From Gonapodya sp. JEL0774 (lineage: Eukaryota), in assembly GCA_027604505.1 (NCBI GenBank), contig JADIIX010000034.1, forward strand, positions 124,001 to 178,243: 54,243 bases of DNA, read 5' to 3'. Position numbers and translations under genes: made by a program. Numbering within the stretch: position 1 is the first letter of the stretch; every line of letters starts with the position of its first letter. Below are positions 5,941 through 32,213 of this stretch, piece after piece. A model generated the notes under the pieces. It was given only the letters and a program-made list of their open reading frames with translations, was not told where the DNA came from and searched no databases.

Positions 5941-6942
5941 ATGGCAGCTGCTTTGACCTACATCCTGTCAATTCCCTCCTGGATCTTTCCAGCAGTACCT
6001 CGAAGCCCATCCTCCCCCGATCCCTCTGATTCCTTGAACGTCTCTGATCACCCGTCACGTTCTTCGCTTGCCACGGCGCTCAAGGATGGTACTCATGAGG
6101 AGCATAAGCGTGCGGAGAGAGCGGTTTTCGTTACAAGTGTTTTGAGAGGGGATGTAGATGTGAGGAAGTGGGCGAGGTTCCTGACGATGTTGGCGTCCGT
6201 GTATCGGTGCGTGATTTGATAGTGCTCGGGGTAGAGAGCTCATCTCTTGCTAACGCAGTCGAATTCTTTCACACTTATTTCTCGTTCTATTTTCTCCTCT
6301 GCTTCTCTCTGTTATCACTATGTTAGCTCGCTAGAAGATGCGCTGGAGCAATTTGCACGTCACCCAGCCGTCTCTCCAATCCACTACCCCCGGGAGCTAT
6401 ATCGGCACCCCTCGATCGTTCGGGACTTGACTACCATTTCCCAGCTCGTTCGCCCTCCTTTGACATCTGATGAGCTGCGGAGTCCCGCTGCGGAGAGGTA
6501 TTCCGAACGAATCGACAGGGCCGCCCGGGAAGGCAAGGTGCATCTATTGGCAGCACATGCCTACGTGCGATATTTGGGAGATTTGAGTGGAGGAAGAATG
6601 ATGGGGGCGAGAGTGAAGAAGGGATTGGTTGGCAAGGCGCTGAGAGAGGCTGGAGAGGACGGAGCGACCGGGTTGGAGTTTTTCGAGTTTTCGGAGGTTG
6701 GAGATGTGAAGATATTTAAGGATTCATTCAGGCGAGGCTTGGACGAGATAGGAAATACGCTGAGCTCAGTGGAGTTTGGTGAGTACCCGATCCTCCTGCG
6801 GTAGTCTCGTCTCTAACATGTTCTAACCGCACTCGGCACTCACCGGCAACACGCAACAGCCGAAACGGTTTGCGAAGCTGAGTTATCTTTCAAGCTCAAT
6901 ACCGACATGTTCGAGGAGCTTTCAGGGGACGCGAGCCTGTGA
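5941..6942 (+). CDS. Heme oxygenase (HO/Hmx1 family), 3 exons
   Basis: LKDGTHEEHKRAE (proximal His), HAYVRYLGDLSGG signature, GLEFFEF, last exon EAELSFKLNTDMFEEL, TGA at 6940-6942. Confidence 0.92.
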
Positions 6943-24869: not shown

Positions 24870-27800
24870 ATGTCCGCTGGCACTTCGACAACGACGTACA
24901 AACGCACCCAACTGCCGTCTGGCTCCATGGCGCAACCGTCCTCCGCGATTATGCCCGCCCCTCAACCCTCGAACTCGTCTTCCTCGACTGCCGCACCCTC
25001 TAGTGGCCCACCATCCACGACCGCACTCTATTATCGTATGGGGAAACCCGTTGCCATAGTTCCAGGCAGAGGTGTCGACCAGGCCCTCGTTGACGTTGAC
25101 CCGTCCACCGCCGCGAAGCTCCTATCCCAACAGCAGCAATTACTCGCTGGTGGAACACTGGGAGGGTCTTCGATTGGTGGTGCTCAAGGATACGCGTACG
25201 ATGGGAGCCTGCTGCCACCTCAGGCAGGGGGGGTGCCCCGATTTAGGCCCGAATGGGAACGGGACAGGATGGAAAGAGTTGTCGCAATGCCGCCCAGCCC
25301 CGAGGTGAGTTTCACGACCCGGGCCATCCGAGACTTACACGTCTCCTCGGCAGCTAGCGAGTGCAAGAAAGTGGGCTGGACGGGACGAGTATCATTGTTG
25401 GAAGTAAGCAGATTACCGAAGAAAACGCATGAATGGATCTGTCAGAAAGCGAGTTGGACACTCCCTGATCACTGCAACGTCTATATGTGCTGCAAAATGA
25501 GGACGTGACCCTTTTCGATGGTCATCGAATGTGTTGCTGAAAGCCGTTCACTCTCCTCGAAACCCTTAACCAGCCACCAACCCACCACCGTGGCGGGCAA
25601 AAATCGATCCCTTCTGTTGGTGGTTCAACTCTCTCATCGTACGACTGGAACGACTCAGACGAGGAACACGACGACGTTGAGCACCACAACCGTGATCACC
25701 ATCTCCGTGATAACCGCCGCGACCAAGGAGATGCCGCTTCCGGCTCTTCCGGTGGTGACTCCAATCGACACCGAGAGGACATGATGGGACGAACACCATC
25801 TCCATCGGAAGCACCGAGTGAGGAAGATTCCCGGCGGCATCACCATCCTGTCCCACTAGAGTCGTACGAGAATCCTGCTCCTTCTACCGTGCAGTTGGGC
25901 GCCCGGCAATCCGCCGGAAACGGTCCTACTTCGCGTGGCTCCTATGGCCGACCAGGTCCCGCGGAATTCGCCGCCGCACAAGCTGCTCAAGCAGCCCAGG
26001 CCCAGGACCAGTCCTTCCCGGCGGCTCCTCACCCAATCCACGCAGCTGATCACCACTCTGGTGCGCATCACGGTGGCGGACCTGGGATTCCCGGTGGCCA
26101 GCCAATGGCCATGTATGCGTTCCCAGGACAACCAACTCCACCCCCGAGTACTGCTCCTAGTGTAGCCACAGGTGTCGGGGGTGTGGGTGACGGGCACGCT
26201 CCACCGCCGAGGCCGCCTCCTAGTCCCACAGCAAGTGGCGTAAGCAAAAGCTTTAGGCGAAGTTATTCGGCGAGCAGTATCAGGATGATGACAAAGGCGG
26301 AGGTAGGACCGAGCGATTTTTCAAAAGTCAAGATGCTGGGAAAAGGAGATGTCGGAAAGGTGTACTTGGTGGTAAGTAATCGCCGAGAGATGCCGGCGTC
26401 AGTCTACGTGATCCGGGTTGCAGATGTCGTAATAGCAACAGCAACTGAGAAGCTTTCCTTTCCACTCAATCATCGTTTTGTCATTCACAGAAGCGAAAAG
26501 ATACCTCCAAACTGTACGCCATGAAGGTTCTCTCCAAACGCGAAATGATCAAGCGCAACAAGATCAAGCGTGTACTTGCCGAGCAGGAAATTCTCGCCAC
26601 TAGTAACCACCCTTTCATTGTGACTCTGTATCATACCTTTCAGAATGAGGATTATTTGTTCTTTGTGATGGAATACTGTGGGGGAGGCGAATTCTTCAGG
26701 TTCGTCCCTCGTCAAGTTCTGCTTTCGAGTCTCGTACCCCGTAATCGTTTTCTTGAGCACCGGAATTCACATTCGTCTCTAATTGTTCTCCCACACAACT
26801 CAATCTGCGATGTTCTCTATCTGGGATACCTTATCAACAGAACCCTCCAATCAAGACCTGGCAAGTGCCTTCCCGAAGCATCCGCTCAGTTCTACGCAGC
26901 AGAGGTTGTCACCGCTCTCGAGTATCTTCACCTGATGGGCTTTATCTACCGGGATTTAAAACCAGAGAGTGCGTATTATCGGTATTGATACTATAGCCCC
27001 CGAATCTCACTGGTCGACCTTATCATAGATATTCTCCTCCATGCTACTGGTCACATCATGCTGACTGATTTCGACCTTTCCAAGCCCTCGGTGGTTCCAG
27101 GCAGCCCAACCATTGTAAAGTCTGGATCAGCCTTCAGCAGGCTCCTCGATTCTCTGACGCAAACTAGCATTGATACCAAGAGTTGCACGAACATCAGGAC
27201 AAACAGTTTCGTGGGGACGGAGGGTGGGTTGTCTTTGATTGTTTGGTGATCCGGGAGCATCATTGCGACTCGATCATAATGTTCACTTCTGTGTTACAGA
27301 ATACATTGCCCCAGAGGTGATCAAAGGGTCTGGTCACACTAGTGCAGTAGATTGGTGGACTTTGGGTATTCTTATATATGAGATGCTGGTATGTGCGATA
27401 AGTGTCCTTGTACTTTCCTCGGATTCACTGTCATCGCCCATGCTCCGACACTCTTCGAATTCCAAACAGTATGGCACGACTCCATTCAAAGGCGCTAATA
27501 GGAACGCCACTTTCCACAGCATCCTAAACAATGAGGTGAACTTCCCAGAGCAACCAGAGGTGTCGACGTACGCCAAAAGTATTGTGAAGAAGGTGAGTCA
27601 AATGATTGGAGATGGACGTCGAATTATGGTGCAAATACCAAATGCTCACATCCACTCATCTTTTTTTGGGATTGTTTCCCTTGTTGGCTCGGTATCAAAT
27701 CTGTATTCTGTTGTTCAATCTGTGACCAGCTCCTTCATAAAGACGAACGGAAGCGCTTGGGCTCCAAAGCTGGTGCCTCCGATGTGAAGGGTCATCCATT

Positions 27801-28128
27801 CTTTCGCAACACGGTGTGGGCGCTCCTGCGCCACCAACGGCCACCCATTGTGCCACGCATGAGAGATCAAGCCGACACTTCCAACTTCCGGTTTCTACGA
27901 GAAAGCGAGAGTTTAGATTTGGAAGGCTCATCGAACACGGGTGTCAACGTTAATGGAGGTGGCCAGGTTGCGCAAGATGGAGGAAGACGAGGGAGGAAGG
28001 GACCTGAGAAGGATCCCTTCTCGGACTTTGACTCGGGTAAGTATTTCTCTTCAGTTGCGAGAGTATTCAATGTGGTGAAACTTGTTCCCCTAGTCACTAT
28101 GCATCGGGAAGGCAACGATTATCGCTAA
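24870..28128 (+). CDS. AGC Ser/Thr kinase, Fpk1/Kin82/Nrc-2 family
   Basis: [68 protein letters not shown] (DFD instead of DFG), [15 protein letters not shown]-terminal [10 protein letters not shown], long low-complexity N-terminus. Confidence 0.93.
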
Positions 28129-28407: not shown

Positions 28408-29883
28408 ATGAGTGGTGTTCTTCCAACTTACGACGAGTGGGAGCATCCTTACCAAATGGCGGGAGCTGAAGTTCTCGGAAGCTTGATCGAGATGGTGATT
28501 TGTGGAATGGTGAATACAGCGTCCGCACTACAGGAAATGCGGTGTATATGCCTGCGTGGACAATCGGATCCACATTCATTCTTTGACTAGGGTGCTATCA
28601 CGAATTCCTTCGTTACCCTGTACTTCATTGATAAAATGAGACAAGATCGCAAAAAGAACAAGTATCACCGGGTTGACTTGCAGACCATCATCGCATCAAC
28701 TTGCATTTCAGTGAGTTTCCGGCCGCGCGGGAAATCAGTCTTCCAGCTGAGCCTGATATCTTACCCACAGGCTGACATGGTGTCCTTGCTAGTTCGATTC
28801 TTTGTCAAGGGCTTTATTTTGTTTCGAGGAGGGCCTCCTGTTGTAAGTGGGCTGGAATGTCAACTTCTGGCACTCAGCTCCGTCATACCCTGGGGTGGAA
28901 CGATACTTGGTTATGCACAACTTGCCCTTGAGCGGTACGATGCTCTTTACTTATCCAATAGCACTGTGAGTTTGCGAGAAGAGACATCTTCCGAACTCAG
29001 ATTGACTTGCCAGGGACTTAGGTCATCCTCACAGAAGCAGAACGCGCAAGCAGAGGTTACCTCGGAATGTCCCGCAAAACAGCTATTTCGGTACTTATCG
29101 GAGGTTATTGCATCTCTCTCGTGATGGGAACTTGCTATCTCGTACGTGGTTGTAAGTCCCTTGTTCCGCGTTTCTACCCCAAAGAGATTTTTTGCACCCA
29201 TCTCTGTTTGATCCAGACGTCCTGTCACCTGGGGGCTTGACTTGTCAATTTAGGTTGTAAGTTCATGCAAGCAACATGGCGTGAGCTAGTGTACGAATTC
29301 TGAAACATATCTGCACTTTACTATTCAAGCTGGAGTTCCACATACATTGACATCATCTACACAACAGTGACATTGATGGGCGTACTTGGAGCTATCGCAG
29401 CCATTGCCTTCAGTGCCGCAGAGATTGTTGTTCAAGCACGTGCACCTGACCGTTTGGATGACAAACTTCCCAGCGTTATGAAGTTGGATCCGAACGCTGG
29501 ACGGCCCCCGCGCAATAAAATCGCAGAAATGCATCTTGCCACGACATGGAAACGAATTTCTATATGCTACATAATGTGAGTGCGTGCATTGCTTGTGCTG
29601 GTTATTTTCACGCAATTTTCCTTTTCAAGTTTTTGGGCGCCAGAGGTATGCGTAATGATGACAGAAGCTTTCACACGGGCACCTGTTGGTCCCGAAGTCT
29701 CACGCTTCAGTTTTATGATGGTCAAATGGTGAACCTTCTCTTGCAAGCGAAATCTCACTGTCAGCTTGTTACTAACTCTCAATTAATAGCATGGGGATCG
29801 TCCAACCGCTTCTGGTACTCTACGATCCAGGGCTGTTTTTATCAGAAGACGCAATAATAGAGAGAACATATTTGGGCCAATAG
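28408..29883 (+). CDS. Class A (rhodopsin-like) GPCR with Lys at the retinal-binding position, opsin-like, 8 exons, 341 aa
   Basis: Exons 28408-28509, 28591-28710, 28771-28965, 29022-29151, 29217-29256, 29330-29575, 29630-29728, 29790-29883 sum to 1026 nt with no internal stop and all introns GT-AG. Motifs: TM1 GAITN, TM2 ADM, C3.25 exactly 25 residues before the R of ALERY, ECL2 YVLSPGGLTC, TM6 FWAP, TM7 K-C-M-G-I-V-Q-P. Confidence 0.85.
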
Positions 29884-30079: not shown

Positions 30080-32213
30080 TCAAGGTCCCGACTGGCTAGC
30101 CATACTAGCCAATGTTCCCAACGTGCCAATCACTGCAATCACTCCGCCACACACCAGACACATCCATGCCGTCGCAATTTCCCACGATTTAGCTGGCAAA
30201 GTAGGGTCGCCGACGCCCAAAGTCGGGGACTCCCACGGACCCCCATACCGAAACAGCTTCAAAAACACCGCAGAAGGAAAAATCACCGACAACGATACGG
30301 AAAGAGCGGATCCCATGAGAGACAGAACGGTTGCCAATCCAGGGAGCAACAGAGCCGCAATCAGACATGTCAGGGAGAGAAATGTACGGATAGTCGGGCG
30401 GATGAAGATCAATGCAAGCCCAGTGCTTCGAGAAAGGTGATAAGAAGAAGGGAGCCCAAGCTCAGCAGTGAGGAGAGGAGTAGTTTCTATTGGGTCATCG
30501 ACGACGGGGACGAAGGGCTCCGCTGTATGAAGGTTGCCGTTGAGGGTATCCTCAGCGCTTTCGGAGACTTGTTCACTTTGGTTATCTTCTTTGACACGCT
30601 CAATCTTGACATTTTGCTGGAGTATCCGATGCCTTATCGCCGTTTCCATGGGCATCGCCATAGCGTCAATGAGGAGGGCAAATTTGGTGAGCGGAAGGGC
30701 AACCTGTTATTACCCATCACACCAAAATATAAGCGGAAGAGAGTCAAAGGGAGTAATCAGTCGTAAGTGGATGGTGAAGTTGACAAACCAGCAAGAACAC
30801 AACTGCCTTGTTTAGCCAGAGTATGAGTGGCGGGGAGGGAAGAGCTGAGAGGTTGTCCGTAATCTGTATCGGCGATCAATATGAAAATGCGTACATGTGA
30901 CTGAGCGAAATTTCCCAACCCCAAGTATGTAATGGGAAAGCGTAGCGCCTCCACCCACCACTTCCGCAACCCCATCGCCGAACTCAAGGTACCCAAAAGC
31001 AGATACAACAACGTACAAGCCTGCTACAGCGTAGAAGGAGGTGTTGAGCACACGTGGGAAGGTAAGCGATCGTTGACTGGTGGAGAGGTAGATTGTTGGG
31101 TGGACTTGGAGAAGGATAAAAGTGTGGGGATTCCGATCCCACTGCATTCATATGATCTCCTAGCTCACCAGCGTGCCCACTCAGACAACTTGCGAACACT
31201 CCCCAACACAAAATGGGTGCCAAGGACCATCCTCCTGGGGGTAACAGACTCGTATCGGCGGGATCCCAGATGGAGCCAGGTGAAGACGGACGCACCAAGC
31301 CGCAGAGTACAATAGTGGCAACGAGGGATATGGAAGAGAATATACCGAGGAGAGACGTATGGGAGAGGTGGTGGGTGGAGAGGAACTAGAAATGTGGTGG
31401 ACGGGTCCTTGTTGGATCCCTGGTTACCTCCGTATCATGCAAAGAAGCAGCTTACCGTGGTCAGCCACATGACTATGAACACTGCGCCTTTGCATGCTGC
31501 CTGTGACAAAGCTAATCCCGCTCCTGCCACCAGGATCCTCAAATTGAGTGCTGCAACCATGAGAACGGCACAATCCGCCCCCCACAACTCCAAGGTGACC
31601 AAGACGGCCGCCAACGCACGACCCGGTACTCCAAACGCCATTCCACCAAGGTCCGCAAACGATATTGGAGAAAAGGATGATATATTGTACTCGAGACATC
31701 GAACGGTAAGCTGGGCAGTCCGGAGGAAAACAGCGTGGATGACAGAAAATGAAACAGTAGCGAGGAGCCACCCAGATTGATGAAGGGAGTAAGGGAGGGA
31801 AAGGAAGCCCAGCTATGCCGGCAACCATACAGTTCAAGAGTGGAAACGAAACGGTTTTATAGATGGATGTCCTCAGTGTTCTCAGGGTCAACTTACTCCT
31901 ACAATGAGGTTGACTGGATGTTTGTTCATTAGGATATTAGGCGATTGTAACAATGAACGAGGTGAGCGGAGCCACGTCAAGGGCATGAACCAAGCGTTCA
32001 CCACTCACCGATATTGAAAGTAGACTGCCTAAATGTGCTTTTGCCCTGTGGAAACTGAGCTTTCAAAGAGTCTGCAGAATCTGCGGCATCTGAGCACGTT
32101 CATTCATTTCAGCACGAATACCACCGAAACTCATTCAGATTGAGAGCCTCACCATCATCAGCAGTTCCAGTTACATCATTTCTGTTTATTTCAGGCGACG
32201 GAAGAGCTGACAT
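30080..32213 (-). CDS. Amino-acid transporter (Aa_trans/AAAP, Avt1-like vacuolar type)
   Basis: Spliced QGKSTFRQSTFNI|VNLIVG|LGFLSLPY..SGW, SFADLG.MAFG, LSGHA|VHPTIY, GYLEFG, VLSLMGS..SVIFPSAVFLK, multiple TM segments. Confidence 0.85.

Follow-up and report, generated by a model that had tools for sequence, protein, structure and literature searches.

Are there retinal-binding class A receptors outside animals? The question is raised by a split gene at positions 28408–29883 (+ strand) of a 54,243-nucleotide stretch of the Gonapodya sp. JEL0774 genome, referred to here as the window. An earlier sequence-only reading had described a hidden eight-exon frame at this locus and named it an animal-type opsin candidate. 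We rebuilt this frame from its coordinates and confirmed it: the eight exons join to 1026 nt, encoding 341 residues plus a stop codon with 0 internal stops. All seven introns are GT-AG and span 54–81 nt, and the product contains seven hydrophobic segments, the last of which (TM7) spans the exon 7/8 junction. The parts of the gene are as follows.

28408..28509, + strand: exon 1, residues 1–34; N-terminus and first half of TM1, including five residues beyond the public model that the paralog matches
28591..28710, + strand: exon 2, residues 35–74; N1.50 (N39), ICL1 and the start of TM2
28771..28965, + strand: exon 3, residues 75–139; D2.50 (D76), R83 (2.57), K87 (2.61), C3.25 (C104), L107 (3.28), W115 (3.36) and ERY (128–130)
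29022..29151, + strand: exon 4, residues 140–182; ICL2 and TM4 (without W4.50)
29217..29256, + strand: exon 5, residues 183–195; ECL2 with Y183, S186 (the bovine 181 position) and C192
29330..29575, + strand: exon 6, residues 196–277; TM5, ICL3 and first half of TM6, with E262 at 6.30
29576..29629, + strand: predicted intron 6, 54 nt, GTGAGT donor and AAG acceptor; absent from the public model
29630..29728, + strand: exon 7, residues 278–310; W6.48, P6.50, E283 (6.51), ECL3 and TM7 up to K310
29724..29726, + strand: K310 codon AAA; counted without gaps from P317, the residue occupies 7.43, where bovine rhodopsin has K296
29729..29789, + strand: predicted intron 7, 61 nt, GTGAAC donor, CTAAC branch site at -18 and TAG acceptor
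29790..29883, + strand: exon 8, residues 311–341 plus stop; Q316-P317 (7.49–7.50), V320 (7.53) and F327 (helix 8)

When exons 2–3 were used as a protein query, we identified a single match, HDU93_005893 of Gonapodya sp. JEL0774, a monoblepharid and thus an aquatic fungus that forms zoospores. This public model spans 273 residues (P0001), and its introns 2–5 and intron-1 acceptor are identical to those of the eight-exon model. The public intron-1 donor lies 15 nt earlier; the later donor is backed by the paralog HDU93_001929, which aligns without gaps over the five added residues and raises the local score from 91 to 124. The public model ends at the TGA starting intron 6, just past exon 6, and contains neither W6.48 nor TM7 nor the lysine. 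Because it ends before TM7, the gene is invisible to protein surveys. Introns 5 and 6 (ending at 29329 and 29629) both finish in AAG rather than YAG, and this acceptor may be why the gene predictor overlooked intron 6. A weaker donor lies 3 nt upstream of the intron-5 donor (window 29254–29329); its use would shorten ECL2 by one residue and place a Trp four residues after the ECL2 Cys, as in several fungal relatives, leaving the lysine unaffected. No second copy of the receptor gene was found within the window.

The surroundings of the gene were also inspected. A protein kinase (Pkinase) gene at about 25541–28040 (+) ends a few hundred bases upstream of the receptor; its motifs presumably place it near the Nrc-2/Fpk1 group, which we take to be related to phototropin kinases. 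No LOV or PAS domain was found in the three flanking frames scanned. An amino-acid transporter gene (Aa_trans, 30080–31812, -) converges on the receptor 3′ end, and a heme oxygenase frame (6235–6804, +) lies 22 kb from the receptor. Across window positions 501–52000, Pfam identified ordinary genes: a DEAH-type helicase, an F-box protein, C2H2 and two fungal transcription factors, NmrA-like, amidohydrolase, MOSC, Na/H exchanger and ankyrin proteins, a metallo-beta-lactamase-fold hydrolase and a TPP enzyme.

The residue spacings of the 341-residue product agree with those of class A receptors. On recounting, C104 (3.25) precedes R129 of ERY by 25 residues, Y183 precedes the ECL2 cysteine C192 by nine, and TM6 carries W280-x-P282, which supplies W6.48 and P6.50, all as the sequence-only reading had stated. 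K310 is located seven residues before P317 and 30 after W280, which corresponds to 7.43 by a gap-free count that depends on predicted intron 7; on the predicted splice model, the lysine had therefore been assigned correctly. The marks of class A membership are present (N39, D76, E128-R129-Y130, W280, P282, P317 and the seven hydrophobic segments), and C104 and C192 are in register for the C3.25–ECL2 disulfide pair. W4.50 and NPxxY are absent, as TM4 has no Trp and TM7 reads Q316-P317-x-x-V320. Since fungal members are reported with NPxxx in the accessible part of PMC3251606, these absences lower the canonical status of the receptor, not its fold. Together these observations support a gene that encodes, on the predicted model, a class A GPCR with a lysine at 7.43. 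A microbial (type 1) rhodopsin was considered and rejected, given the lack of a Bac_rhodopsin Pfam match and the presence of ERY and the disulfide pair; the distinction from type 1 rhodopsins drawn earlier is borne out by the class A motifs, the lack of a Pfam match and the lack of a type 1 entry among the Foldseek and Atlas matches listed.

Introns 6 and 7 lie outside the public model and no RNA run is listed, so that the predicted junctions rest on class A register. Splice enumeration 3′ of exon 6 produced 5012 models, 172 of them valid, which were scored on five class A register marks; these marks were picked with the model and the family already in view, and hence the register tests were not blind. 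At least four of the five marks were reached by one of the 172 valid models, namely the eight-exon model, with 5/5. This uniquely register-restoring splice model puts the lysine seven residues before P7.50. When all DNA after exon 6 was resampled, none of 60 runs reached two marks; with exon 7 kept and the rest resampled, four marks were reached in 10/60 runs and five in 0/60. Independently of these marks, a gap-free count back across intron 6 places a glutamate (E262) at 6.30, the usual ionic-lock partner.

Language-model and fold searches pointed to class A GPCRs in general, whereas sequence searches recovered no relative besides the paralog. Against 1.84 billion representatives, phmmer returned three matches, comprising the receptor itself, its paralog and P0003, a repeat protein sharing one short loop word that was dropped as spurious. 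Protein searches by word index recovered nothing beyond the gene product, to which a profile added the paralog. Pfam, 7tm_1 included, gave 0 matches for eight exon-based queries, for the 273-residue fragment and for the paralog (P0002), and the PDB sequence search gave 0 matches for the 273-residue fragment and, with a profile, one irrelevant match (E 0.37). No opsin appeared in the phmmer search, in the PDB search or among the Atlas matches listed, negatives that have limited bearing on membership of the opsin clade as the receptor is too divergent to match any class A receptor by sequence. In the ESM Atlas, the TM1–TM6 fragment gave a first match at 0.94 and 7tm_1 clusters, the best 10 family matches all falling in one clan and none of the 10 listed being an opsin-named cluster; exon 7 alone (32 residues) gave no informative match. 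A two-sequence AlphaFold model restricted to TM1–TM6 reached a pLDDT of 41.5. With this model, all 50 Foldseek matches listed were class A receptors (E 0.013–0.097, none ≤ 0.001), rhodopsin being one of the 50, at rank 27. VIA-align of the same model gave a best Z of 8.3 (rmsd 9.1, 228 residues aligned) to Ste2; the 10 matches with at least 180 aligned residues were all GPCRs, and no opsin was among the matches listed. The single-sequence model (pLDDT 40.1, TM1–TM6) gave no meaningful fold match. Metagenome scans confirmed 0/276 and 0/594 pattern matches, and a viral scan 0/5. The language-model search with TM1–TM6 and the Foldseek search with its low-confidence model point to class A GPCRs and not specifically to opsins.

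The sequence-only reading had cited an opsin-like receptor of Spizellomyces as precedent. According to the accessible part of PMC5410147 (Ahrendt 2017), the SPPG_00350T0L model was built after adding one cytosine to the genome, and no other type 2 rhodopsin of fungi was said to carry the lysine. Supplement 7 of that paper, read by eye, contains a JGI model of the unedited genome that splices a 65-nt GT-AG phase-2 intron in TM7; this model has Ile at 7.43 and a 6.48–7.50 distance of 37. In the edited SPPG_00350T0L this distance grows to 58, and the codon of K320 comes from the last bases of the 65-nt intron. K320 requires both the inserted base and read-through of this intron. As judged from these sequences, K320 is likely an artefact of a wrongly retained intron and not a true K296, and the precedent probably fails. 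This interpretation agrees with a 2025 survey (PMC12716839), whose available portion reports no K296 or E181 in aligned holomycotan receptors (three representatives); the same portion reports no K296 in aligned choanoflagellate rhodopsin-family receptors. A 2022 paper, starting from the SPPG protein as a query, credited the ancestor of fungi with a type II rhodopsin for green light. With the sole published case in fungi likely explained by an intron left in by mistake, the JEL0774 receptor is worth testing.

We mapped the pocket residues by gap-free count, with geometry taken from the sequence; both structure models are below pLDDT 42 and stop short of TM7. The bovine-rhodopsin numbering of these positions is in part our assumption and in part drawn from PMC10060157. 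The equivalents are R83 for 90, K87 for 94, L107 for 113, W115 for 121, S186 for 181, E283 for 268, R303 for 289, F306 for 292 and K310 for 296. Accordingly, we identified no acidic counterion at 113, 181, 94 or 292, where L107, S186, K87 and F306 are located, and because none of these is acidic the usual visible-light pigment is unlikely. The retinal-pocket residues Gly121, Tyr268 and Ala292 (positions per the accessible part of PMC10060157) are also absent, W115, E283 and F306 being found instead.

Based on this pocket, whose Leu, Ser, Trp, Glu and Phe at 113, 181, 121, 268 and 292 are unlike those around retinal, we propose with a probability of roughly 55% that the receptor belongs to the rhodopsin family of zoosporic fungi and senses a chemical, an anionic lipid or other small anion, and not light. 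K310 (7.43), R83 (2.57), K87 (2.61) and R303 (7.36) would together form the lining of a single basic sub-pocket enclosed by TM2, TM3 and TM7, and in the empty state E283 (6.51) would likely form a salt bridge with K310. A carboxylate or phosphate ligand is expected to displace this bridge and shift W280 (6.48), whereupon the R129–E262 ionic lock would break and the G-protein site open. The retained ERY, E6.30, W6.48 and helix-8 Phe would relay ligand binding to the G protein, and Lys7.43 would represent a lineage-specific gain. Neither Arg2.57 nor Glu6.51 needs retinal, since Arg2.57 occurs in SPPG_00350, whose unedited model has Ile at 7.43, and Glu6.51 in the lysine-less SPPG_03814. Also in favour, the congener G. 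prolifera has one of three carotenoid-pathway enzymes and a truncated CyclOp. Against the chemoreceptor stand PMC4608122, according to which no class A receptors other than opsins have Lys7.43, and PMC9368030, where it is taken as the opsin-defining residue. Basic residues at 90 and 94 without a counterion are moreover a known UV-opsin signature in the accessible literature, which yielded no ligand for any member of the fungal family, and no GPCR was matched by sequence in Pfam or the PDB.

This signature underlies the strongest alternative, possible but doubtful in our view, in which a UV retinal pigment arose within the fungal class A family and carries an unprotonated Schiff base on K310, absorbing at about 360–400 nm. 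R83, K87 and the missing counterion would keep the Schiff base neutral; light isomerisation would move W280 and activate the G protein, with E283 as a possible photoproduct counterion. K310 occupies 7.43 in gap-free register, the paralog is basic at both TM2 positions (Arg/Arg), and W6.48, P6.50, ERY, E6.30, the disulfide pair and the helix-8 Phe are retained. Precedents for such tuning, as given in accessible parts of the sources, include Lys90, which gives arthropod opsins UV sensitivity (K90E shifts Rh7 from 350 to 450 nm), Platynereis c-opsin1, shifted from 383 to 491 nm by K94T, and a counterion-free coral opsin that absorbs at 395 nm. Other sources record a carotenoid oxygenase retained in G. 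prolifera and, in another chytrid, a 400 nm phototaxis peak without a known receptor (PMC5410147). Lysines engineered in helix 2 can carry retinal too, according to a review, so that K87 is another candidate attachment site. However, the bulky Trp (3.36) and Phe (7.39) would leave retinal little room, judging from the positions given in PMC10060157. The lysine is seen in one sequence only, Arg at 2.57 is also present in a lysine-less relative, the TM2 register is a gap-free count, and no report of Gonapodya phototaxis stood among the titles listed by our literature search. The retinal light sensor proposed earlier would most plausibly be of this UV, unprotonated kind; that proposal had overlooked both missing counterions and the residues at 3.36, 6.51 and 7.39, which are unlike those of a retinal pocket. 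An independent gain of the opsin lysine in a fungal receptor that became a UV-sensing, G-protein-coupled retinal pigment tuned at 90/94 strikes us as unlikely; if true, animals would for the first time not be the only holders of a genuine type-2-like photopigment, and the gene would take the place of the probably artefactual Spizellomyces example.

It is improbable that introns 6 and 7 are spliced otherwise, in which case either the public 273-residue protein would be the product or the gene would be a decaying copy, with the lysine incidental. The public models of both paralogs do end at this point, intron 6 has an AAG acceptor, and the intron 7 donor matches the consensus at two of four positions. 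The product also has no W4.50, Val at 7.53 and, compared with the available family sequences, Ser at 7.35 where 9/12 have Asp. Yet only one splice model attains 5/5 register with controls at 0/60, E6.30 remains in register across intron 6, and 341 codons run without stop or frameshift.

We consider it very improbable that the gene is a true animal-opsin orthologue, retained from the animal–fungal ancestor or transferred from an animal and with K296 by descent. Lys at 7.43 and a Tyr nine residues before the ECL2 Cys speak for it. Against it, the ECL2 spacing is common to lysine-less fungal members and the 6.48–7.50 distance is the fungal 37 in the sequences available, phmmer against 1.84 billion representatives found no opsin, the clusters of PMC3251606 separate fungal from animal members, and neither the flanking genes nor the intron sizes are unusual for a fungus.

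In sum, the class A assignment, the gene model and Lys7.43 of the original opsin proposal hold, but opsin identity does not follow from them, since the closest folds and clusters belong to class A receptors in general, the motifs are those of a lysine-less fungal family, and the pocket residues are not those of retinal binding. We do not file the receptor as an opsin because, the single-residue criterion aside, counterion and pocket residues disagree and the searches did not place it among opsins. The gene is real and, given the predicted splicing, its lysine is read correctly; as far as sequence can tell, a chemical sensor is more likely than a light sensor. Our literature search, which covered openly accessible papers, listed nothing on this gene or on type 2 opsins in Gonapodya; none of the papers listed casts doubt on the Spizellomyces lysine, and this lysine-bearing variant was not found in print. 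Should K310 bind retinal, class A receptors either gained the Schiff-base lysine twice or had it before animals existed. Should it not, Lys7.43 would be insufficient by itself to define an opsin, and type 2 opsins in fungi would lose their support. The gene corrects a cited precedent and bears on the origin of animal-type photopigments.

Compared with known systems, the receptor shares Lys7.43, basic residues at 90 and 94 and the lack of an acid at 113 with UV-sensitive animal opsins (arthropod UV opsins and Rh7 with Lys90, Platynereis c-opsin1 with Lys94 and the counterion-free coral AtCnidop3a, as described in accessible parts of the sources). It differs from them in lacking detectable sequence similarity as well as Glu181, Gly121, Tyr268, Ala292 and NPxxY. 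SPPG_00350 is of the same receptor family, has Arg at 2.57 and carries in TM7 a phase-2 intron whose position agrees to within one codon with that in the JEL0774 gene; it has Asp at 3.28 where the JEL0774 receptor has Leu, and the JEL0774 lysine sits, on predicted splicing, in an exon of unedited sequence.

The only real homologue found (phmmer, E 1.6e-25) is the paralog HDU93_001929 (KAJ3342543.1), on another contig of JEL0774. The two have the same TM3 motif, Trp at 3.36 and basic residues at 2.57 and 2.61 (Arg/Arg in the paralog), and exon 3 is the best-conserved portion. The intron 2 position is common to both, and the intron 6 position apparently so. The paralog has Asn at 2.50, and its public model reads through intron 2, misses the ECL2 exon and ends before TM7 and 7.43.

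The zoosporic-fungal Rhodopsin family was compared by eye, not by computed alignment, using SPPG_00350 and 12 sequences from the accessible part of PMC3251606 (Dataset S1), to which the following counts refer. The JEL0774 receptor differs from these members in Lys7.43 (0/12), the position being occupied by S, S, S, Y, V, Y, C, Y, Y, H, V and A, and in lacking W4.50, Asp7.35 (present in 9/12) and Asn7.49; its TM1–TM6 fragment is also too divergent for 7tm_1. It has in common with them a 6.48–7.50 distance of 37 (10/12), a Glu ten residues after 6.48 (5/12) and Cys-Gln at 3.25–3.26 (8/12). The W-x-P-E of TM6 is also found in SPPG_03814 and the TM7 motif G-I-V-[N/Q]-P-L in SPPG_02538. ERY, the TM2 Asp (D2.50), the two Cys of the C3.25–ECL2 disulfide, the ECL2 motif, the TM7 Pro, an aromatic residue at 7.50+10 and the family register were all recognised. 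On these likenesses, fungal class 15 is the most likely home of the receptor among class A GPCRs; PMC12842992 by Liu and co-workers (2025) gives 984 sequences for this class, two of them in G. prolifera.
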